Source: an uncultured cyanobacterium
GTDB taxonomy: Bacteria; Cyanobacteriota; Cyanobacteriia; Pseudanabaenales; Pseudanabaenaceae
Direction: 5' to 3'
Assembly (NCBI GenBank): GCA_963703315.1
Contig: OY969811.1
Location: 2,752,001-2,816,000 of the forward strand
DNA length: 64,000 nt
Part shown: in pieces, positions 48,986 to 56,913 of the stretch
Layout of the letters: the number at the start of each line of letters is the position of its first letter
Numbering within the stretch: position 1 is the first letter of the stretch
Position numbers and translations under genes: made by a program
The notes under the pieces: model-generated
The model's database searches: none
Told to the model about the DNA's origin: nothing
What the model saw: only the letters and a program-made list of their open reading frames with translations

Positions 48986-49083
48986 GCAAATCTTCCCTTA
49001 TAAGGCAAACGACATCTAAACCATCTTGGCAGATTTTCCTAGTGGTTTGCAAGGAAGTATAGAAAAGTTTGAGAAACTAGAGC

Positions 49084-49187
49084 TAAGTATCTGAGCATAG
49101 TTAAAAACCAGAACCAAAACCTGTGGCGCACGCTGCGCGTGCGCCACAGGTTTTGGGATTGTATATTTAATTGCGCCCAGATACTTA
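49084..49187. mobile_element. 104-bp MITE-like repeat, copy 1
   Basis: Ends TAAGTATCTG../..CAGATACTTA, central hairpin CCAAAACCTGTGGCGCAC..GTGCGCCACAGGTTTTGG; near-identical copy at 60726-60829. Confidence 0.8.
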
Positions 49188-49289
49188 GATCTGTCGAGCC
49201 TGCTTTTGATGGCTAGGTTTCAAGTCTTGCGGTGCAACCCTTATGTCATAGACTGACTATAAAAATTGTTGAGAAACTATTTTTTGCAA

Positions 49290-49339
49290 AGGCGATCGCT
49301 TGATTGCTTGTTTACAGGTTTATGAGTATGCTGATCGCA
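49290..49339 (+). repeat. 50-bp direct repeat, left copy (starts with HIP1)
   Basis: AGGCGATCGCTTGATTGCTTGTTTACAGGTTTA...; 44/50 identical to 50544-50593. Confidence 0.85.
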
Positions 49340-49404
49340 TAGAGAATATTGCTAAAATATTCAGTAAATTCATCATTTCAGTGTATCGCTTGGAGAATCT
49401 GTGT

Positions 49405-49611
49405 ATGCTAACTAGACAAAGGCTTGAACTATTATCGGCAAGTGCTTGGGATGTTGCCATGAGTGAGATTAATAGTAGCAATCCAGAAAAGCTAAATCTC
49501 AGACGACAAAGAATCAATCAATTATTTACAACATGGGCTATGTTGGACAGTGAAGATGAACAGAAAGAAGCATTGAAAGTCATTGCATCTGTTGAAGGTG
49601 TTTCGATCTAA
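49405..49611 (+). CDS. small hypothetical protein, probable orphan antitoxin
   Basis: GGAG before ATG 49405; stop overlaps (TAATG) the start of a truncated PIN-like ORF. Confidence 0.55.
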   Translation: MLTRQRLELLSASAWDVAMSEINSSNPEKLNLRRQRINQLFTTWAMLDSEDEQKEALKVIASVEGVSI

Positions 49612-49676
49612 TGAGTCAGATTATCTTTTTGGATTCTACGCCTGTTGGATTAATTGCGAATCATTACGAATTCTAA
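49611..49676 (+). pseudogene. 5' stub of a PIN-like toxin gene
   Basis: MSQIIFLDSTPVGLIAN resembles a PIN N-terminus (hhhLDS/T); ends after 21 codons against the opposing PIN gene. Confidence 0.55.
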
Positions 49677-50119
49677 TAGGAAGAAGATTTTTCAGTTGCC
49701 CAGTCTTCAATTGATAAGTTTGGAATTTGTCCAAAATCCTTAGCATTGCGGGTAATTACAGTGGCGTTGATAGATAAGGCGATCGCGGCGATCCTTAAAT
49801 CTCTTGTCCCCAAACGCCTAAACTGGCGGCGCAAAATCTCAAACTGATTATAAGCTTTAGTGTCAAAACTAACTCTCTGTATAGTTTGGAAGAAATCCAA
49901 AGCTTTCTCAATCTCTGAATAGGCTAAAAGTAGTCTTGATGACTGGGAGGCTTGGCTATATTTATTAATTTCACTGAGCCATCCTTGACAAATCTCTTCA
50001 GCCGTTATGATTGAGATGGCTAGGTCATTTGGTTCGGTTTGAAATACGCGATCACAAACCAGATTATTTCCTTTGAGAAATAAAGAAGCATGATCGGTAT
50101 CAAGTATCAATAGACTCAA
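49673..50119 (-). CDS. VapC/PIN toxin
   Basis: LILDTDH, ITAEE, DLRIAAIAL, TRNAKDF..IPNLSIEDW. Confidence 0.9.
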   Translation of the reverse strand: MSLLILDTDHASLFLKGNNLVCDRVFQTEPNDLAISIITAEEICQGWLSEINKYSQASQSSRLLLAYSEIEKALDFFQTIQRVSFDTKAYNQFEILRRQFRRLGTRDLRIAAIALSINATVITRNAKDFGQIPNLSIEDWATEKSSSY

Positions 50120-50472
50120 GCGATTTTTTCCTCTTGATAGTCAATTTTGGTCTGTGAATCTAGTTCACGACGATGAGATTCAATGTTGGCTAGTACGGAG
50201 TCAAATAGCTGACTATTTTTATAAATTCCTGCGAACTTTCGCCAAGGATGTTCTTGTTTGGGAATTTCTAGTTCTAGAGATATGACTTCATTCTCTGATA
50301 AATTTGCAGTAATTAATCGATCTAATTCAGAAATAGCTGAGTGGCGATCGCTGCTAGTAACTCTATATTCAGGCAGTTCTAATGCTCTAGCGCTGACTCT
50401 ACCATCTTTTTCATTTTTGACTAAGACGTTAATAGACAGTTTAGTTTGTCCGTTAATCAGTTTAGCGTTCAT
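50116..50472 (-). CDS. antitoxin partner (HicB-like N-terminus)
   Basis: Overlaps the PIN start; EHPWRKFAG..FDSVL motif; start at ATG 50472. Confidence 0.72.
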   Translation of the reverse strand: MNAKLINGQTKLSINVLVKNEKDGRVSARALELPEYRVTSSDRHSAISELDRLITANLSENEVISLELEIPKQEHPWRKFAGIYKNSQLFDSVLANIESHRRELDSQTKIDYQEEKIA

Positions 50473-50543
50473 AAAATTTACCTTTGGCGATCGCATTGCT
50501 TACAATGCTTTATATTATGACACTGCTTAATGATTATGGGCAT

Positions 50544-50783: not shown

Positions 50784-51422
50784 ATGTCTATAAATAATAC
50801 TGAGATTCGTTTGCTTCTAAATCTATGGGATTTGGGGGAAGGTCAAGGCATGGTAAACAAGGGTAAGGTCTTACCGTCCTTTAGTGGAAAGGATAAGGAT
50901 ATTAAGAAGGCTGAGTATAAGAATGCTTTGCAGATTTTGATCGATGGTGGGGCGATCGCTGTGTCTACTAAGTATTCGCTGACAGATGCGGGTTTGCAGA
51001 GGTTGGCTGATGGTTTACGATCGCCTGATTTTAGTTTTGAGGGGGCAACGTTGGTCAGCAGCCGTTTGGCAAATGCGGCTTTGCGATGGTTTCAGCAAAA
51101 TTCCGATCAGGTAGTAAGTGTTGAGTCTGCGCCTAAGATTTCGTCTTACGATGAGTTTAAGGTTGTGGCTTTAGAAACTTATAAGCGTCTGAGCTATGAA
51201 TCTAATGTAAGTAAGCTCGTCCCTATCTATCAGATCCGCCGTGATATTGGCGATCGCGTGACTCGTACTCAGTTTAATGACTGGATGCTAGAGATGCATC
51301 GCACTGATGTTTTGCATTTGCATGATGGCGGTTCTTTGCAGGCAACGGAAGATCAAGCTAAGGACTCGATATATAGCGAGTTACTAAAAACTTACTACTT
51401 CAACGCCGAACTGTTTAACTAA
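50784..51422 (+). CDS. cyanobacterial winged-helix-like protein (RcaD-like)
   Basis: LLLNLWDLG..; C-terminal SYDEFK..LVPIYQIRR..TRTQFNDWMLEM resembles, from memory, RcaD-type proteins encoded upstream of ATPases. Confidence 0.6.
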   Translation: MSINNTEIRLLLNLWDLGEGQGMVNKGKVLPSFSGKDKDIKKAEYKNALQILIDGGAIAVSTKYSLTDAGLQRLADGLRSPDFSFEGATLVSSRLANAALRWFQQNSDQVVSVESAPKISSYDEFKVVALETYKRLSYESNVSKLVPIYQIRRDIGDRVTRTQFNDWMLEMHRTDVLHLHDGGSLQATEDQAKDSIYSELLKTYYFNAELFN

Positions 51423-51442
51423 TCATCCAACTTTTTCCCATC

Positions 51443-53995
51443 ATGATTGCCCATAAAAATCCATTTCTCAAACCTCCAATTGTCAACTCAAAAGATATTT
51501 GGAGTGATCAGATCTCTGACTTTGAGGAAATTCATGCAGATGCTTCTCAAAAAATATTTGACGCTTTACAACAAGTCAAGGGGACTTTTTCAATTGCTGT
51601 TGTCGGCAATGTCGGCTCAGGAAAAACCCAGCTTTTTTCTAGGGTTCGTCATAAACTTTCTAGCAATACGGAAGCTTTTTGTGTCTATATAAATGCCGAT
51701 CAGATTGCCTCACTAGATTTTGTCTCTGTTGCATTTCAGCAATTCTTAGTTGATAGCCTTTTTCACACTGGAAAATCTGGAGTCACCTATTTACAAGAAA
51801 TTGCTACTAATCTGGTAAATCAGGCATTAGAAGGGATTAAATCAACCAAACGATTTTCTACTCATGAATTACTAGATCAGTTCAATCAACTTGCAACTAA
51901 TAAATCGTTGGTTGATAAAATTACTGGACAAGTTCAACAACTAAAGCCCTATCTATCAGATAGTTCAGAGGTGATTCGGGCTTTGCTTTGGACTTTATCA
52001 GCATCTAGCAAGCCTATTCTAGATGAATCAGATTTTTTGTCAGATTCTCCCACATCATCAAAGTCAACTAACTACTATCTTGCACCTAGTGCTACAGATT
52101 GGCTTAAAGGTATTGAAATTAATGCAGATGATGCTCAAATCATGAAACTATCTAATAAAAGTTTCAAGGATGAAGAGAAAGAATCAGAAGCGCTAAGACG
52201 TGCAATGCAGCTATTGCGTATAGCATCTGAGTACAAATCAGTAGTTATTTGTTTTGATGAATTAGATGCAATCAAACATAATAAACACGCAACTGGAACG
52301 GCAGAAGTAATTTCAGACTTGATCAAGACATTGCATAATGGGTTAGATAAAGTTGAATGTAGAAACTCGATTTTAATATTGTCTCTTTGGGTCAATGATA
52401 CATTTAGAAAGTCGGACTTTCTAACTACTTTTGGCTTAATAGAAAGAGTTTGTTCACTAGCTGATTTAAATAAAGAGCCAATTTCGCTAGATAAAAATCT
52501 TCTCACTGAAGACACTGGACTCAGATTAGTTGATTTTTGGCTTGATAAGTTGAATGCGAAAAACGCAGAAAATTCTTATCAACCATTGGGCGGTGAAGAA
52601 AAGATTAGACATTTTTGTAAAAATCGTCCTAATCCCAGACAACTATGGCGCTGGTGTGCTGAAAACTGGATGGAACAACCAGAGCCAGTTGGCGGAAAAG
52701 TCACTCCTCCACCTCCACCTCCTGTTGATCTTGATTTGATTTATCAAAGTCTGATAGATGATGAGTACTCTCAACTCATAGAAGATGATGATTTAGTAGT
52801 TAAGTCTTTGATTTTTGGCTTCAACAAGGCAATTACACAAACAGTTGAGAAAGTCTTAATCAAAAAAATCACAACACAACCCAAAACTGCTAGATTTCAA
52901 TTCAAAATCGAAGGCATTGAAGATGGAAAACCTGTCTCAATTGGTGTTGGTGTTTGTCAGTCTGCAAAGGCTGCAACAGTTGGTGCAATGTTGCTAAGGC
53001 TTTTGGACTATCAAAGATACAAATTAACTCGCGGCTGTCTAGTACGCTCCAAAAACAAGAGAATCAGCCCAAGAACTCAAGCTTTTGAAAATCTAACTAA
53101 ACTCATAAGCGCACCTTTTAACGGCGAATTTGTACCTCTCAAATATGCCGAAGTTGTTGAAGTTTATGCTTTGTTTTTGCTATCACAACATCCTGAAGTA
53201 GCAACACTAAATCCTGATGAAGTTGATAAATTTATTATTGAGAAAGCCATTAATAATGGATTAATCAAAGAAATCCTCAGCGATCCATCTGGTGAAATCC
53301 CTGCTGCTGCAATCTCGCAACCCACATCATTTAGCGATACTGGAAATACAGCTAAAAGCAATGATACAGGCTTATCTGATGATGACTTTAAGGTTACTGA
53401 TGACGATGACAAAGAAGATGAACTAGAGAAGTTAATTAGTGATTTGCTATCAGAGCAGTACTCAGAGCCTTTAATTGTCATATCTCATAACAGGGATGAA
53501 GATACAGGCTCTCTGTATGGTCTATTTGTAGATATCAATCGCAATTTTTTCTTCGATTATCAAATCACTGATTCGGGCGTTGCTTACCAACCTTGTGAAT
53601 TTATCAGAGAATTATCAAAGGGGAAACTAAAAATCCTGTCCGCACTTAATACTGATGAGATGGTTGCATTAATGCGGCTTCTCAGAATATCTAAGGCGAT
53701 CGGTGGATCAGTCACAATCCTTGACGATAAAGATTTTGAAGACCAAGAAGCAGCTTTAGAAATTTATGGTTTCTATCCTCCAGATTTAGATGCTAACCCA
53801 GCAATTTATTACAGACACGAACAGCTAGGTGTATCCATTGGCGCTCAACTATTTTGGGGTGATGACGATACCGAGAGCCTGTCTTTTGGCTTTGTGAATG
53901 ATATTCAAACAGAAGATTTTTCTGTATTTGATAGCTTTGATGAAGCTCTAGACTTTGGCATCATGCGCCTAAACTACTACATCGAAGAGTCATAA
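51443..53995 (+). CDS. P-loop/AAA+ ATPase with nuclease-fold-like middle region and acidic C-terminal extension
   Basis: Walker A GNVGSGKT, Walker B VVICFDELD, poly-Pro linker, YKLTRGCLVRS region, D/E-rich tail. Confidence 0.82.
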   Translation: MIAHKNPFLKPPIVNSKDIWSDQISDFEEIHADASQKIFDALQQVKGTFSIAVVGNVGSGKTQLFSRVRHKLSSNTEAFCVYINADQIASLDFVSVAFQQFLVDSLFHTGKSGVTYLQEIATNLVNQALEGIKSTKRFSTHELLDQFNQLATNKSLVDKITGQVQQLKPYLSDSSEVIRALLWTLSASSKPILDESDFLSDSPTSSKSTNYYLAPSATDWLKGIEINADDAQIMKLSNKSFKDEEKESEALRRAMQLLRIASEYKSVVICFDELDAIKHNKHATGTAEVISDLIKTLHNGLDKVECRNSILILSLWVNDTFRKSDFLTTFGLIERVCSLADLNKEPISLDKNLLTEDTGLRLVDFWLDKLNAKNAENSYQPLGGEEKIRHFCKNRPNPRQLWRWCAENWMEQPEPVGGKVTPPPPPPVDLDLIYQSLIDDEYSQLIEDDDLVVKSLIFGFNKAITQTVEKVLIKKITTQPKTARFQFKIEGIEDGKPVSIGVGVCQSAKAATVGAMLLRLLDYQRYKLTRGCLVRSKNKRISPRTQAFENLTKLISAPFNGEFVPLKYAEVVEVYALFLLSQHPEVATLNPDEVDKFIIEKAINNGLIKEILSDPSGEIPAAAISQPTSFSDTGNTAKSNDTGLSDDDFKVTDDDDKEDELEKLISDLLSEQYSEPLIVISHNRDEDTGSLYGLFVDINRNFFFDYQITDSGVAYQPCEFIRELSKGKLKILSALNTDEMVALMRLLRISKAIGGSVTILDDKDFEDQEAALEIYGFYPPDLDANPAIYYRHEQLGVSIGAQLFWGDDDTESLSFGFVNDIQTEDFSVFDSFDEALDFGIMRLNYYIEES

Positions 53996-54004
53996 AACCA
54001 AACA

Positions 54005-55375
54005 ATGCGCCTCGAATTATCTTTAACAGTCGATCCAACAGACTACAAAAAACTAACAACGGGAGAGAATATCGCTATTCTCTTCCGTCCTTTTCCCGTT
54101 GGCAGAAAATTCGCATTAGCGCCACTAATAAACAGTGACAATAGTGAAAAAATTGAATTTCTTACCAATACCTATGTAGAAATTGTAGACAAAGAAGTTA
54201 TTAGTCAAGACAAAATCAATAATGACTTGGCTAAAATACTAAGCATAACTTTAGAAGATCTGCAAACAAAGCTAAATAATGCCGATAACTTGCTACTAAT
54301 GTACTTTCGAGTTTATTGCTTTGAACCACAGATCAAAGTTTTCACCAGTAATCAAATCGGCTTTATCCCATTACCACAAGTAACAGAAATCAAGAACCCC
54401 GTCCCATTATTTAGCGATCATCTATTCCAAAAACGAAAACAAGAAATTAAATCGCGCCAGCCATCCAAACATTCAAAACTAGAAAACTTACAAATATCTC
54501 TTAATCAACTATCAATTACAAATCCATTAGCCCAAGTCCTGAATCAACAAATTCAAACTTTTTTAGGCTATACGGATAACACACCCACAAGAATAAATAA
54601 TCAAAATTTATCTTGGATTAGCACTATTTCAACTTTAGGCGATCGCAGTATTGAAACAGATACAGGTAAGAACAACTGGCAAGCAGGGACAGATTTTGAA
54701 AATATTGCAAAGCAAGGCTTAGAATTTCTAGGCTTTACAATTGATGAATCCCATAAAGGTGGAGCGGGAGGCTTAGATTTATTCTGTTCAAAACCTTATC
54801 CACTAACAGGAGAATGTAAAGCAGGAAAAAGCGTTCCCAGTCGCACAACCGAAGAATTGCTTAAGCTTGGAGGTATGAGATTAGGAATAGATAAATTTTT
54901 AGAATCTAAAAAACTAATTATTGGTGCTGGCAAAATCAATAACGATGTAATTACAGCCTCTCACGAATGGAAAGTTAGTATTATTAAAGCTATGACATTA
55001 CAAAAACTCGTTGAACTCAAAGCCAAATATGATGGCGCTATCAATCTATTTGAACTCAAGGAACATTTGCAAGCAGGACAAATTGATGACAAAATTCATG
55101 AGTATATCCAAAAGGTTGAAAGTGAGATCAAACTGCGATCATACATTGTTAAAACTGTTAAAGAACTGCAAGATACAGACTCTGAATATCCTAGTCCAAT
55201 TGAAATTCGGACTCATTACAACGCTAAAAAACAAGGTTCCAATCTTAGTCTTGATTCCACTAAAGAAATACTAATCGAGCTTTCTTCACCATTGGCGGGA
55301 TATTTGGGAAGAGTTAAGGGTGATGGAGGAAAAGGCGATCGCTTTTATTACTTACGAGATTTACCAATTGAATAG
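54005..55375 (+). CDS. DUF1802/PUA-like domain fused to a PD-(D/E)xK (Mrr-like) endonuclease with wHTH-like C-terminus
   Basis: GTDFE..LEFLGF..GGAGGLDL..GECKAG catalytic pattern; the N-terminal assignment is inferred. Confidence 0.75.
   Translation: MRLELSLTVDPTDYKKLTTGENIAILFRPFPVGRKFALAPLINSDNSEKIEFLTNTYVEIVDKEVISQDKINNDLAKILSITLEDLQTKLNNADNLLLMYFRVYCFEPQIKVFTSNQIGFIPLPQVTEIKNPVPLFSDHLFQKRKQEIKSRQPSKHSKLENLQISLNQLSITNPLAQVLNQQIQTFLGYTDNTPTRINNQNLSWISTISTLGDRSIETDTGKNNWQAGTDFENIAKQGLEFLGFTIDESHKGGAGGLDLFCSKPYPLTGECKAGKSVPSRTTEELLKLGGMRLGIDKFLESKKLIIGAGKINNDVITASHEWKVSIIKAMTLQKLVELKAKYDGAINLFELKEHLQAGQIDDKIHEYIQKVESEIKLRSYIVKTVKELQDTDSEYPSPIEIRTHYNAKKQGSNLSLDSTKEILIELSSPLAGYLGRVKGDGGKGDRFYYLRDLPIE
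55294..55363 (+). repeat. direct repeat A (3' end of the nuclease gene; HIP1 at 55335-55342)
   Basis: GGCGGGATATTTGGGAAGAGTTAAGGGTGATGGAGGAAAAGGCGATCGCTTTTA.. Confidence 0.92.
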
Positions 55376-55392
55376 ATAACTAAGAAAATATT

Positions 55393-55683
55393 ATGGAACT
55401 ACAACAAGCCCTAACAATTCTAGAAAACCATCGTCATCAAATCAAAACCTTAAATGTAAAATCGCTATCTATTTTCGGATCAGTCGCTAGAAACGAAGCT
55501 ACAGAAAACAGTGATATTGACTTTGTAGTAGAGTTTGAAGGAACTACAACCTTTGACAAATATATGGACTTAAAAATTTTTCTAGAAGACACATTACAAA
55601 CAAAAGTCGATCTCGCCACATGGCGATCGCTAAAACCTCAAATTAAAACTAACATAAATAAGGAAGCCATCCGTGTCGCGTAG
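55393..55683 (+). CDS. minimal nucleotidyltransferase antitoxin (MntA-like)
   Basis: IFGSVARNE..SDIDFVVEF, KVDL. Confidence 0.92.
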   Translation: MELQQALTILENHRHQIKTLNVKSLSIFGSVARNEATENSDIDFVVEFEGTTTFDKYMDLKIFLEDTLQTKVDLATWRSLKPQIKTNINKEAIRVA

Positions 55684-56020
55684 CTTAAAACTCTATCTAG
55701 AAGACATCTTAAAGAGCGGTAACAAAGTACTAGATTTTACCGTAAACATGACCATCGAAGAACTTGTAAGAGATGAGCGCACATTTGACGCGGTTGCTCA
55801 TAACTTACAAATCATCGGAGAAGCTACAAAAAACATACCTGAAGAAATACGCTCTCAATATCCTCAAGTTGAATGGAGAAAAATCGCAGGACTACGGGAT
55901 ATTATTGCTCATGCATATTTCAGTATTGACGAAGAAATTATCTGGGATATTATCCAAAACAAACTTTCAATTTTATTAGAGCAAATCCAAAACATTCTTC
56001 TCAATTATGTAGAGGAGTAA
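55673..56020 (+). CDS. HEPN/DUF86 RNase toxin (HepT-like)
   Basis: IIGEA, WRKIAGLRDIIAHAYF (RX4H), IIWD. Confidence 0.92.
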   Translation: MSRSLKLYLEDILKSGNKVLDFTVNMTIEELVRDERTFDAVAHNLQIIGEATKNIPEEIRSQYPQVEWRKIAGLRDIIAHAYFSIDEEIIWDIIQNKLSILLEQIQNILLNYVEE

Positions 56021-56067: not shown

Positions 56068-56132
56068 GATATTTGGGCAGAGTTAAGGGTGATGGAAGAA
56101 AAGGCGATCGCTTTTACTCCCTGCGAGACTTA
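56068..56132 (+). repeat. direct repeat B (displaced 3' end of a nuclease allele; HIP1 at 56104-56111)
   Basis: Reads YLGRVKGDGRKGDRFYSLRDL versus YLGRVKGDGGKGDRFYYLRDL in the gene. Confidence 0.92.
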
Positions 56133-56217
56133 TTGCTACGATAAATAAGTGACATTTACCAAAAATGTTAAAATCATCTACGCTAGTCTACTAAAACAGA
56201 CCAACTGGAGTAACACT

Positions 56218-56445
56218 ATGCTTTTGCAAGAACTTAAGAATCAGGTGCGTAAATTACCTGTAAGCGATCGCCTAGAACTTGTGCGCTCTATCATCGATTC
56301 GATCCAAGAAATTCCAATTTCAAAACCTACGCGAACCCAAGCAATCAGCCGCATGAAAGGTTTACTCAAAACTAGTCAGCCATCCCCGACCGATGCTGAA
56401 GTCGGATCAATGTTAGAACAGCATCGCATGGAGAAATACCTCTAA
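56218..56445 (+). CDS. putative antitoxin
   Basis: GGAG + ATG 56218; MLLQELK..LPVSDRLELV..GLLKT..EKYL; TAATG coupling to the PIN gene. Confidence 0.78.
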   Translation: MLLQELKNQVRKLPVSDRLELVRSIIDSIQEIPISKPTRTQAISRMKGLLKTSQPSPTDAEVGSMLEQHRMEKYL

Positions 56446-56855
56446 TGAAAGTTCTTGTTGACACAAATGTTCTACTTGATTTTTTGTTAGAAAGAGAACC
56501 TTTTAAAAAGGATGCAGAAGAACTGTTTGCAGCGATCGACTCTGGACAAATCATTGGCTATATAACCGCTACAACCCTGACCGATATTTTCTACATTGCG
56601 CGTAAACATACTCGCAGCCTAGAACTCGCAAGAGAAGCAGTTTCCAGCACCTTAGAAACCATGACTATTTGTCCAATCAATCGAAATGTCTTAGAGGCAG
56701 TATTTACATCTGGCTTAACAGATTTTGAAGATGCTGTCCAGATTTATGGTGCGATCGCTCAAAATTTAGATGCAATAGTAACCCGTGATGCTAAAGGATT
56801 TGTAAGTTCAACTATCCCTGTATACTCTGTTCAAGAATTACTAAAGAGATTGTGA
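56445..56855 (+). CDS. PIN-domain toxin
   Basis: VLVDTNVLLDFLL, TTLTDIFY, DFEDAVQ, AIVTRD..F. Confidence 0.92.
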   Translation: MKVLVDTNVLLDFLLEREPFKKDAEELFAAIDSGQIIGYITATTLTDIFYIARKHTRSLELAREAVSSTLETMTICPINRNVLEAVFTSGLTDFEDAVQIYGAIAQNLDAIVTRDAKGFVSSTIPVYSVQELLKRL

Positions 56856-56864
56856 AATGCTAAA

Positions 56865-56913
56865 GGCGGGATATTTAGGAAGAGTTAAGGGTGATGGAAG
56901 AAAAGGCGATCGC
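56865..56913 (+). repeat. direct repeat C, ending exactly at HIP1
   Basis: GGCGGGATATTTAGGAAGAGTTAAGGGTGATGGAAGAAAAGGCGATCGC, 47/49 identical to repeat A. Confidence 0.92.

Follow-up and report, generated by a model that had tools for sequence, protein, structure and literature searches.

What do three tightly spaced genes flanked by toxin-antitoxin (TA) modules do in the genome of an uncultured cyanobacterium of the Pseudanabaenaceae? The genes, here called A, B and C, lie in a window of 64,000 nucleotides in which the initial annotation had proposed an undescribed defence operon. The features of the locus are as follows:

49673-50496, minus strand: divergent antitoxin-like gene and PIN gene (Pfam PIN, E 2.8e-5), with no bounding repeat
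50784-51422, plus strand: gene A (ORF, 212 aa), a two-domain, probably winged-helix, DNA-binding protein (hhalign to an RcaD-type profile)
51443-53995, plus strand: gene B (ORF, 850 aa)
51443-52690, plus strand: Cdc6/Orc1/TnsC-like AAA+ module of B, aa 1-416 (AlphaFold model, structure comparison)
52724-53296, plus strand: conserved alpha/beta domain of B, aa 428-618, with a TRGCLVRS motif (predicted secondary structure)
53360-53995, plus strand: acidic, allele-specific C-terminal domain of B, aa 640-850 (48 D/E versus 15 K/R)
54005-55375, plus strand: gene C (ORF, 456 aa)
54005-54415, plus strand: ASCH (PUA-superfamily) domain of C, a divergent DUF1802 allele (structure searches)
54599-55129, plus strand: PD-(D/E)xK nuclease domain of C, with E232, D258, E270 and K272 (structure comparison, alignment)
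55136-55375, plus strand: C-terminal domain of C, a probable winged helix (wH) with a conserved tail (helix-helix-helix-hairpin topology, pLDDT <55)
55290-55369, plus strand: repeat copy 1, the coding 3' tail of C, with HIP1 at 55335 (nhmmer)
55393-56020, plus strand: first TA cassette, an MNT-HEPN pair (Pfam: NTP_transf_2 E 1.6e-15, HepT-like E 3e-30)
56068-56132, plus strand: repeat copy 2, 65 bp, 89% identical to the C tail, with HIP1 at 56104 (nhmmer)
56149-56855, plus strand: second TA cassette, antitoxin and PIN toxin (Pfam PIN_3, E 6.3e-24)
56865-56913, plus strand: repeat copy 3, 49 bp, 96%, ending in HIP1 at 56906 (nhmmer)

The layout is as initially described: all three genes are on the plus strand, separated by 20 bp (A/B) and 9 bp (B/C), both Walker motifs of B are intact (A as GNVGSGKT at aa 55-62, B as ICFDE at aa 269-273), and the Mrr-like E..D..ECK pattern of the third gene corresponds to E232..D258..E270-C-K272 of C. 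Pfam places TA genes on both sides (PIN plus partner upstream, MNT-HEPN and antitoxin-PIN downstream), and no sign of a methyltransferase was seen nearby, with no DPPY, NPPY or PCQ motif in ORFs of at least 150 aa between 40000 and 64000. The 126-aa partner of the upstream PIN gene has no Pfam match, and comparison of loci indicates that this pair is no conserved part of the A-B-C cassette. Scanning the locus for promoters and terminators gave signals at shuffle level; contigs from RNA runs overlap each of the three genes in part, from which transcription cannot be deduced and whose coverage gaps are uninformative.

The A-B-C cassette is a conserved cyanobacterial set, common to many filamentous cyanobacteria. 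The expected co-occurrence holds: of the 63 loci that could be assessed, 60 have the genes in this order, and the cassette is near-universal in two families (29/37 and 13/16 genomes), mostly in single copy. ATPase-nuclease (B-C) fusions also occur (four among the 150 representatives listed, 12 of those examined). The anticipated enrichment of defence genes near homologues failed to appear: outside Pseudanabaena the recurrent neighbours are housekeeping genes, and the cassette occupies fixed chromosomal sites beside, e.g., fpg, psaE, pgi, and gpmI. Of 130 representatives of the flanking proteins, PADLOC matched 10 at E <= 1e-25, mostly in a generic way and with no control set for comparison, and only two of the 130 are restriction enzymes, both type IIG. 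No methyltransferase is among the recurrent neighbours. The plasmid, phage, and viral contig collections searched hold no copy, which argues against a mobile origin.

Gene A matches an RcaD-type profile (hhalign, 98.6%, E 1e-15), its halves corresponding to the second and third of three RcaD domains (95.6% and 97.4%). It has no match in Pfam or NCBIfam and no meaningful one in PADLOC. The evidence on its earlier wHTH-like label is weak: the top matches of its profile among PDB sequences, eS10 and the RIO2 N-terminus, both winged-helix folds, reach an E of just 0.13. No repeat between the two halves of A, and no likeness to the wH of C, was detected by hhalign. A predicted A-B complex scored 0.39 versus 0.00 for the best control (runs 0.43/0.03/0.39), with contact agreement of at least 76% and a partner pLDDT of at least 78. 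At scores of 0.60 or under, 18 of the 157 solved complexes attained the mark, as did both mismatches that passed, and the model lends weak support to an A-B partnership.

The AAA+ module of B (mean pLDDT 86.6, AlphaFold) resembles Cdc6/Orc1 (2qby: Z 15.2, rmsd 3.8, 238 aligned) and TnsC (Z 12.3-13.3). Residues G58, G60, K61, D272, and R399 are kept in 55/55 homologues, and position 273 is E in 46 and Q in nine. A viral fold search with B returned nothing at E <= 0.001. The alpha/beta domain (aa 428-618) has no significant match in a PDB profile search or an Atlas search and no similarity to the C nuclease by hhalign; from its predicted strand order alone we infer a resemblance to an inactive restriction-endonuclease fold. 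The tail varies among alleles: some stop at about aa 640, and others have a SeqA-like domain in its place (four relatives; 3sk7 E 0.0044, Pfam SeqA E 0.015).

In C, the N-terminal domain aligns with YqfB (Z 7.7, rmsd 3.1, 94 aligned), CXorf40A (Z 7.6), ZmASCH (Z 6.8), and TRIP4 (Z 6.1); the top nine Foldseek rows are all ASCH proteins, none at E 0.001 or better, and relatives of C carry PF08819. The nuclease resembles N.BspD6I (Z 7.4, rmsd 4.4, 147 aligned) and FokI (Z 6.8), relatives match Mrr_cat, and the catalytic residues are conserved among 59 full-length proteins (E232 58/59, D258 59/59, E270 59/59, K272 58/59). Structure comparisons thus agree with the AAA ATPase, PUA-like, and PD-(D/E)xK calls first made for B and C, while sequence searches of C against the PDB gave no match. 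In some variants the ASCH domain is swapped for ParB or TPR domains or, in B-C fusions, is missing, and is therefore dispensable there. The wH core (aa 380-422) is hypervariable (17 allele classes across 51 loci), and the segment 55141-55261 is exchanged for other sequence in metagenome contigs.

No named system accounts for this set, as had been supposed: PADLOC (2023 release), NCBIfam, and Pfam gave no above-cut-off match except generic AAA. DS-41 is rejected (NF053860, 27 bits against a cut-off of 370), being a single-gene system with one CDS in its supplement row. RcaD and RcaG, which A and B had been said to recall, are chromatic-adaptation regulators, and to our knowledge promoter binding by RcaD is the only experimental role for the family. 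Homology holds: A and B match RcaD-named proteins and their downstream ATPases (hhalign, 98.6% and 99.9%), and at the loci of these RcaD-named relatives of the Fremyella (Tolypothrix/Calothrix) PCC 7601 proteins the gene order is the same as here and a PD-(D/E)xK nuclease gene likewise comes third. Orthology does not: identity is about 19%, as between distant paralogues, A (212 aa) lacks the first domain of the ~285-aa, three-domain RcaD, and the third gene encodes ASCH-nuclease-wH in the cassette but (3'-5' exonuclease)-nuclease-FtsK beside RcaD/RcaG (nuclease-FtsK in 9/12 loci). The All4300/5335 family fits A in size (217-245 aa) and weak RcaD similarity, by its description in the excerpted text of PMC2799420. 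This genome has no closer RcaD/RcaG copy.

McrBC combines an AAA+ NTPase, a PD-(D/E)xK nuclease, and a modified-base reader, and the cassette likewise has an ATPase, such a nuclease, and a predicted modified-base reader; however, the reader sits on the nuclease and not on the NTPase, the ATPase is Cdc6/TnsC-like, A is an additional component, and McrB and McrC models are missing from the PADLOC, NCBIfam, and Pfam matches. Tn7 offers a parallel in TnsD/TniQ-TnsC-TnsA, with a DNA-binding adaptor, a TnsC-like ATPase fold, and a PD-(D/E)xK plus HTH nuclease (the architecture of TnsA), but no DDE transposase is among the recurrent neighbours, the sites are fixed, and alleles are exchanged rather than transposed. 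BREX, DISARM, and Dpd are excluded by missing linked methyltransferase, PglZ, and base-exchange genes, leaving scattered weak P-loop matches to BrxD and DpdH. SspFGH, DndFGH, and MADS share a three-gene set including a Walker A protein (PMC8092258, in the part available), but the cassette has neither FtsK nor linked modification genes, and the lack of this translocase subunit sets it apart from SspFGH/DndFGH. The modification-dependent enzymes VcaM4I, TagI, and YenY4I, as presented in excerpts of PMC6765204, share an N-terminal PUA-like and a C-terminal nuclease domain with C. Like the cassette, such fusions are reported there away from methyltransferases; they are not typically in defence islands, whereas DUF3427 fusions are. 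Consistent with a type IV enzyme of this kind, we found a PUA-superfamily reader (at moderate scores), an intact nuclease, and no cognate methyltransferase; the cassette differs in its ASCH/DUF1802 reader, its wH, its obligate AAA+ and DNA-binding partners, and its shuffling.

Alleles of the cassette are 24-45% identical where the flanks are 87-99% identical. At one site, L041 and L044 agree in gpmI (99%), nuclease (91%), and wH (98%) and diverge in ATPase (24%) and ASCH (34%); L041 and L059, at the same site, share the ATPase (98%) and differ in nuclease (58%) and wH (17%). Over 51 loci the distances of A, B, and ASCH covary (r 0.66-0.74), and those of nuclease and wH show almost no covariation (r -0.03 to 0.14). 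ATPase allele classes cross family lines with support of 100/100 in the tree; the nuclease tree was built with FastTree. Breakage is also frequent: B or C is split in 6/60 loci and two further loci are decayed, compared with one short gene of 67 across six control families. In the relic L088 the middle of the cassette is replaced by Schlafen-TPR and a reverse transcriptase, and in L106 A is followed by a PLD-SNF2 helicase.

HIP1 sites follow the modules of C. The reported gap is present, with flanking sites at 51250 and 54639 and none between, in a genome with 8189 sites and only 72 gaps of at least 3300 bp; 21 of 413 ORFs of at least 1800 nt are HIP1-free. The sites are clustered at module borders in C and at chance level in B, and GATC avoidance by B is ruled out (observed/expected 1.06). 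Pairwise comparisons of C gave 303 breakpoints, not independent of one another, of which 52 lie at aa 370-389 and 24 at aa 200-219. Other peaks, at 320-329, 420-429, and 180-199, coincide with no shared HIP1 site, and the idea that every crossover lies at HIP1 is therefore not supported.

Because of this allele shuffling, gene loss, and replacement, we regard the cassette as probably a defence system of some kind, and the immune-like swapping of parts at fixed sites points to a putative, undescribed system against foreign DNA. The anti-phage or type IV-like proposal thus remains the best reading, though on these grounds and without the defence-island context once expected of it. Its specific form we consider an even bet: a three-protein restriction system, type IV-like and activated by ATP, whose specificity is shuffled and which is under balancing selection. 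Sequences or models directly show the domains, the intact active sites, the linkage of the genes, the B-C fusions, and the shuffling of alleles; on them the following scheme could be built. A would bind DNA and load B, which would form oligomers on DNA, as Cdc6 and TnsC do, and switch C on in the manner of McrB-McrC. The ASCH domain would read a modified base and the winged helix would supply sequence context, and the FokI-like domain would thus cut invading phage or other mobile DNA bearing a foreign mark. Recombination between relatives, probably HIP1-aided at module borders, would reshuffle the A-B-ASCH block, nuclease, and wH, yielding new specificities at one fixed chromosomal slot. L086 favours this scheme: the only full-length C of 59 without A and B is also the only one to have lost E232 and K272. 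Against it stand the structural Z-scores of C, all below 8, a near-universal single-copy retention that is stabler than that of most defence systems, and the position outside defence islands and absence from plasmids, phages, and viral contigs. An ASCH domain as methyl-DNA reader is moreover unproven, the characterised member YqfB being an amidohydrolase (PMC11037411, in the text available).

In abortive infection, which we think rather unlikely, B would use its variable body or its acidic tail to sense a protein of the phage, oligomerise, and free C on host DNA, with ASCH as a docking or regulatory module. B does vary over its whole length (18 classes across 51 loci), its top Foldseek match is the RADAR ATPase RdrA (E 2e-4), ASCH tracks B (r 0.74) and not its own nuclease (r 0.02), and there are the fusions lacking ASCH and a variant with TPR in its place. 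However, neither a Pfam scan nor the structure model reveals a repeat sensor domain in B, physical adjacency also explains the ASCH-B covariation, and the DNA-binding fold of A and the hypervariable wH favour DNA recognition. Self/non-self restriction as with DndFGH/SspFGH, in which the host would shield its chromosome by an unlinked mark (phosphorothioate, or methylation of HIP1 at GATC or CGATCG) and unmarked DNA would be cut, is improbable. The FtsK domain of the sister RcaD-RcaG locus, which ends in nuclease-FtsK, matches SspH and mad8, some B proteins have SeqA-like tails, and most cassette-bearing genomes have dndC; but this genome (G000), G047, G089, and G233 carry the cassette with no dndC match, and an obligatory phosphorothioate partner is not supported. 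A search for DUF4007, the Ssp marker, matched nothing, controls included, and is uninformative. HIP1 is also reported to lie outside any restriction system in PCC 7002 (bioRxiv 2024.09.10.611283, in the part available), a strain that may or may not carry the cassette.

A housekeeping role is quite improbable, whether in controlling transcription, as published for RcaD/RcaG, or in repairing bases that are modified or damaged. Fixed sites beside housekeeping genes and wide retention agree with it, as does binding of the cpc2 promoter by RcaD with RcaG as proposed helper (PMC2799420, citing Noubir 2002), yet in vitro an RcaD-like protein showed non-specific binding to unrelated DNA (same excerpted source), the alleles diverge far beyond their flanks, copies are often broken, lost or replaced, and the nuclease site is conserved. 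Very improbable is selfish or kin-discriminating action in polyploid, transformable filaments, where an incoming or sister allele would cut chromosomes lacking matching parts, breed many alleles, and draw in addiction cassettes: alleles shared by different families at fixed sites, TA arrays joined to C, and the absence from mobile-element collections suit it, but no antidote gene was identified and inactivated or deleted copies are common.

If the cassette is a restriction system, its homologies suggest a machine of similar type for RcaD and RcaG. A nuclease gene now stands beside these two proteins, known as regulators. More speculatively, and with doubt, RcaD/RcaG-like pairs could be the shared engine of a cyanobacterial family of restriction machines with interchangeable effectors (ASCH-nuclease-wH, exonuclease-nuclease-FtsK, and PLD-SNF2). 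In the present subtype HIP1 palindromes would serve at module borders as crossover points for combinatorial shuffling of specificity; the ATPase would be kept free of them, and the C tail would employ them again as attachment site of an integrase-free TA array. HIP1 would then gain a concrete role in immune diversification. Its pattern (enriched at the borders in C, no more than chance in B, present within the cassette repeats) offers a handle on what HIP1 does, and the cassette would be the first case in which to test ASCH/DUF1802 as a reader of DNA modification. Being in most sampled genomes of two large families, the cassette could affect both phage range and genetic tractability in bloom-forming and model filamentous strains.

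Flanking TA genes occur chiefly in Pseudanabaena. The array resembles an integron in that its TA cassettes are repeat-bounded and change position; in contrast, the coding tail of C serves as the repeat, which bears HIP1 and is non-palindromic (-2.5 kcal/mol). An integron is rejected, since the weakly folding repeat lacks an attC-type palindrome and no IntI integrase was found among the scanned neighbours. Contigs of run X2 skip the first TA cassette, and the second is third in L009 and first in L010 and L073 (722-732 bp, 91-97% DNA identity). These sequence comparisons indicate that Pseudanabaena has mobile TA cassettes delimited by copies of the 3' end of C.

Three adjacent genes, each single-copy in a search of the Pseudanabaenaceae genome G000, which is Pseudanabaena-like by its nearest named relatives, form a cassette that the initial annotation had proposed as an undescribed defence operon:

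50784-51422, + strand, A, predicted DNA-binding protein of 212 aa
51443-53995, + strand, B, AAA+ ATPase of 850 aa
54005-55375, + strand, C, predicted ASCH-nuclease-winged helix (wH) protein of 456 aa

The window sequence confirmed the three-ORF layout and gene spacing, as well as the Walker motifs of B and the E..D..ECK pattern of C. The stretch described as free of HIP1, a short palindrome abundant in the genome, is bounded by sites at 51250 and 54639, and no methyltransferase motif was found within 40000-64000, as had been claimed. The cassette has no match in the libraries searched for named systems (PADLOC, NCBIfam, and Pfam), where B returned generic AAA matches only and A and C nothing useful. 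A full-text search, in which subscription papers are thinly covered, found no published account, and supplementary system lists could contain one. The cassette is real, conserved, and unmatched to a named system in these libraries.

Of 301 cyanobacterial genomes sampled, 57 gave a match to C, among them 29/37 and 13/16 genomes of two families and 1/166 genomes of the last ten families pooled. We examined 64 loci: the window, 10 loci from a separate search, and 53 regions that represent 52 of the 56 remaining genomes with a match; genomes G227, G223, and G201 lie outside this set, and G044 was added later. One locus has no upstream DNA, and the expected co-occurrence held at 60 of the 63 assessable loci, which carry A-B-C in order (59 initially, one completed later); two of the remainder are decayed and one is an orphan. 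The cassette was absent from the plasmids, phages, and viral contigs searched. It occupies genus- or family-specific sites (psaE-fpg-ndhO...pgi, secG-gpmI-NUDIX-rhodanese, and pilM-O), and the recurrent neighbours of its homologues are housekeeping genes, not the defence genes that had been predicted. Among 130 cluster representatives of 220 flanking ORFs of at least 150 aa, a cutoff that drops small TA genes, ten matched PADLOC at E <= 1e-25 in a scan that had no control set: two type IIG enzymes, the rest being Uma2-type, kinase, TnpB, intron RT, ABC-like, and similar proteins. The cassette is not a defence-island system.

The predicted structure of C has a mean pLDDT of 67.9, with values of about 90 over the first 150 residues. 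Residues 1-137 appear to resemble ASCH proteins (YqfB, Z 7.7, rmsd 3.1, 94 aligned) and residues 198-375 the catalytic domains of BspD6I (Z 7.4) and FokI (Z 6.8); the structural match lists are coherent, with all Z-scores under 8 and no Foldseek hit at E <= 0.001. The last 80 residues may, at low confidence, adopt a winged-helix topology. The catalytic residues are kept almost throughout (E232 58/59, D258 59/59, E270 59/59, K272 58/59), and the sole protein deviating at E232 and K272 is the one without an upstream A or B. Relatives have DUF1802 at their N-terminus. A search with the nuclease-wH part listed 150 representatives; among the 12 checked, which were those of unusual length, four are ATPase-nuclease fusions and three have ASCH replaced by ParB (two, one from a separate search) or TPR (one). 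A 685-aa relative, P0261, has two tandem nuclease domains and is probably a recombination product.

B comprises an AAA+ domain, a further conserved domain, and an acidic tail that is confined to one allele group; four other long relatives instead have a SeqA-like tail (best E 0.0044). The modelled AAA+ domain is Cdc6/Orc1-like (Z 15.2) and TnsC-like (Z 12-13). Nine alleles (L044, L051, L053, L067, L068, L075, L082, L084, and L087) have Q for the Walker B glutamate, seven of which form one class paired with its own ASCH class; these are possibly ATP-binding, slow-hydrolysing forms. Sequence pattern and database matches tentatively suggest that A has two domains with a winged helix, and complex prediction hints at A-B binding (0.39 against 0.00 for the best control).

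The cassette most plausibly works like a type IV restriction machine, and we give even chances to ATP-activated, modification-reading restriction, of which we infer all steps from DNA loading through cleavage. Abortive infection triggered by a sensor is possible but unlikely. Restriction in which a host mark protects the cell's own DNA is improbable; no dndC match was found in G000 and three other cassette-bearing genomes, and a required phosphorothioate partner is therefore unlikely. A housekeeping role seems more improbable still, and a selfish or kin-recognition role the least credible. It falls outside McrBC, SspFGH, and BREX, and its A and B are not RcaD orthologues.

The suggested likeness to RcaD/RcaG is borne out by profile alignments (98.6% for A; 99.9% over 481 columns for B; about 19% identity), and A corresponds to RcaD minus its first domain. 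According to PMC2799420, RcaD binds a promoter and RcaG is a putative ATPase (citing Noubir 2002), and an RcaD-like protein shows non-specific DNA binding. Second-tier A-profile matches fall at 12 loci, all with a B-like ATPase next. Of five first genes whose clusters were checked, four belong to ones titled 'transcription factor RcaD'. The third gene is a PD-(D/E)xK-FtsK gene at nine of the 12 (L094-L101 and L103), with an added 3'-5' exonuclease in seven of the nine, and its FtsK part matches SspH and mad8; both subfamilies therefore end in a nuclease. At four of these loci the operon is followed by a gene of 294 aa, and the single copy scanned is ParA-like. This RcaD, RcaG-like ATPase, and (exonuclease)-nuclease-FtsK operon is a candidate for a separate system.

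Signs of conflict come from allele shuffling and from gene breakage and replacement. At the gpmI site of ten genomes of one genus, gpmI is 89-99% identical, whereas identity is 24-98% (median 43) for the ATPase, 40-98% (median 44) for the nuclease, and 10-98% (median 21) for the wH core; the fpg/pgi site shows the same pattern. Across 51 intact loci, distances of A, B, and ASCH covary (r 0.66-0.74, 0/500 shuffles), and nuclease and wH vary almost independently, both of these three and between themselves (r -0.03 to 0.14), figures that describe rather than test because kin are non-independent. B, nuclease, and wH classes occur there in 40 combinations. In a 23-row ATPase tree, nine alleles of the gpmI-site genus fall in four places, with classes shared with another family (support 100/100), and the nuclease tree of the same rows groups differently. 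Contigs of three public runs have the wH segment 55141-55261 swapped for 130 other letters.

B or C is split at 6/60 loci, against one short gene in 67 in six flanking families; assembly errors may lie behind some splits. Relics at L088, L058, and L110 retain the start of A and the end of C around foreign genes, which are unassigned ones at L058 and L110. At L088:8606-10991 the middle is replaced by a Schlafen/AlbA_2-TPR gene and, 223 bp from it, a gene for a 364-aa reverse transcriptase; the pair may be a retron- or DRT-like system. At L106:5157-9376 an intact A homologue precedes a 1097-aa PLD-SNF2 helicase in place of B and C. Truncated A is followed in two genomes by 267-aa and 433-aa genes (L108:10925-13044 and L110:10762-12885), the L110 block being closed by a C tail remnant.

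Over 57 loci, A carries 1.73 HIP1 sites per kb, B 0.03, C 1.39, and the flanks 0.95. B has one site in 47 compatible peptide contexts (55 intact genes), where flanking ORFs have 572 in 840; its count is at chance level, and A and C are more than 200-fold enriched. The scarcity of HIP1 in B may reflect selection that removes chimeric forms, or else rare recombination between divergent alleles. Three module borders hold 88 of the 116 sites in C (aa 212, n=13; aa 377, n=42; aa 444, n=33), and the window C has none at 377. Methylated HIP1 is reported to raise integration more than 100-fold, like a crossover hot spot (bioRxiv 2024.09.10.611283). HIP1-driven shuffling is a lead, since breakpoints peak near 377 and also elsewhere, and conserved sequence such as that around these sites should host crossovers in any case. 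HIP1 absence from long ORFs could offer a cheap defence-gene filter for cyanobacteria; the 21 such ORFs in G000 appear, from their N-terminal sequences, to mix AT-rich defence-like and highly expressed genes.

The initial annotation noted TA modules on both sides. The TA pairs are present, but they are weaker evidence of a defence island than they appear. The last 50-90 bases of C are repeated, each time behind a TA pair, at

56068-56132, copy of the C tail
56865-56913, copy of the C tail

and the TA flanks thus arise from a cassette process using the C tail. This repeat, which is not palindromic, occurs at all ten Pseudanabaena-type loci with more than 800 bp downstream and at 3/52 other loci. 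Most of the 24 repeat-bounded segments are TA-type pairs (YoeB, ParE, PIN, MNT-HEPN, BrnT-like, DUF433, and MazF-like), and the same cassette occupies differing array positions among loci. At a second G000 site (C1:4285699-4286183, equal to L114:6699-7183), in a TA-rich stretch at the 3' terminus of a gene encoding a 585-aa P-loop protein, two repeats flank a gene 94% identical to a DUF433 cassette gene. Two C-tail repeats lie upstream of A at L001:80-810, and metagenome joints in relatives connect the C tail to 49324-49647; the array and upstream genes may therefore be rearranged or tandem. Downstream of C at L043, L055, and L058, C-tail repeats bound a divergent pair of 105-aa and 120-aa genes, the latter aspartic-protease-like, and this pair is common after C in one family. 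L006, a locus deposited as Rhizobium, has a Pseudanabaena-like cassette and TA array and is probably a mis-binned contig. A separate dispersed repeat of about 105 bp, at 49082-49190, has well over 50 copies in G000 in both orientations.
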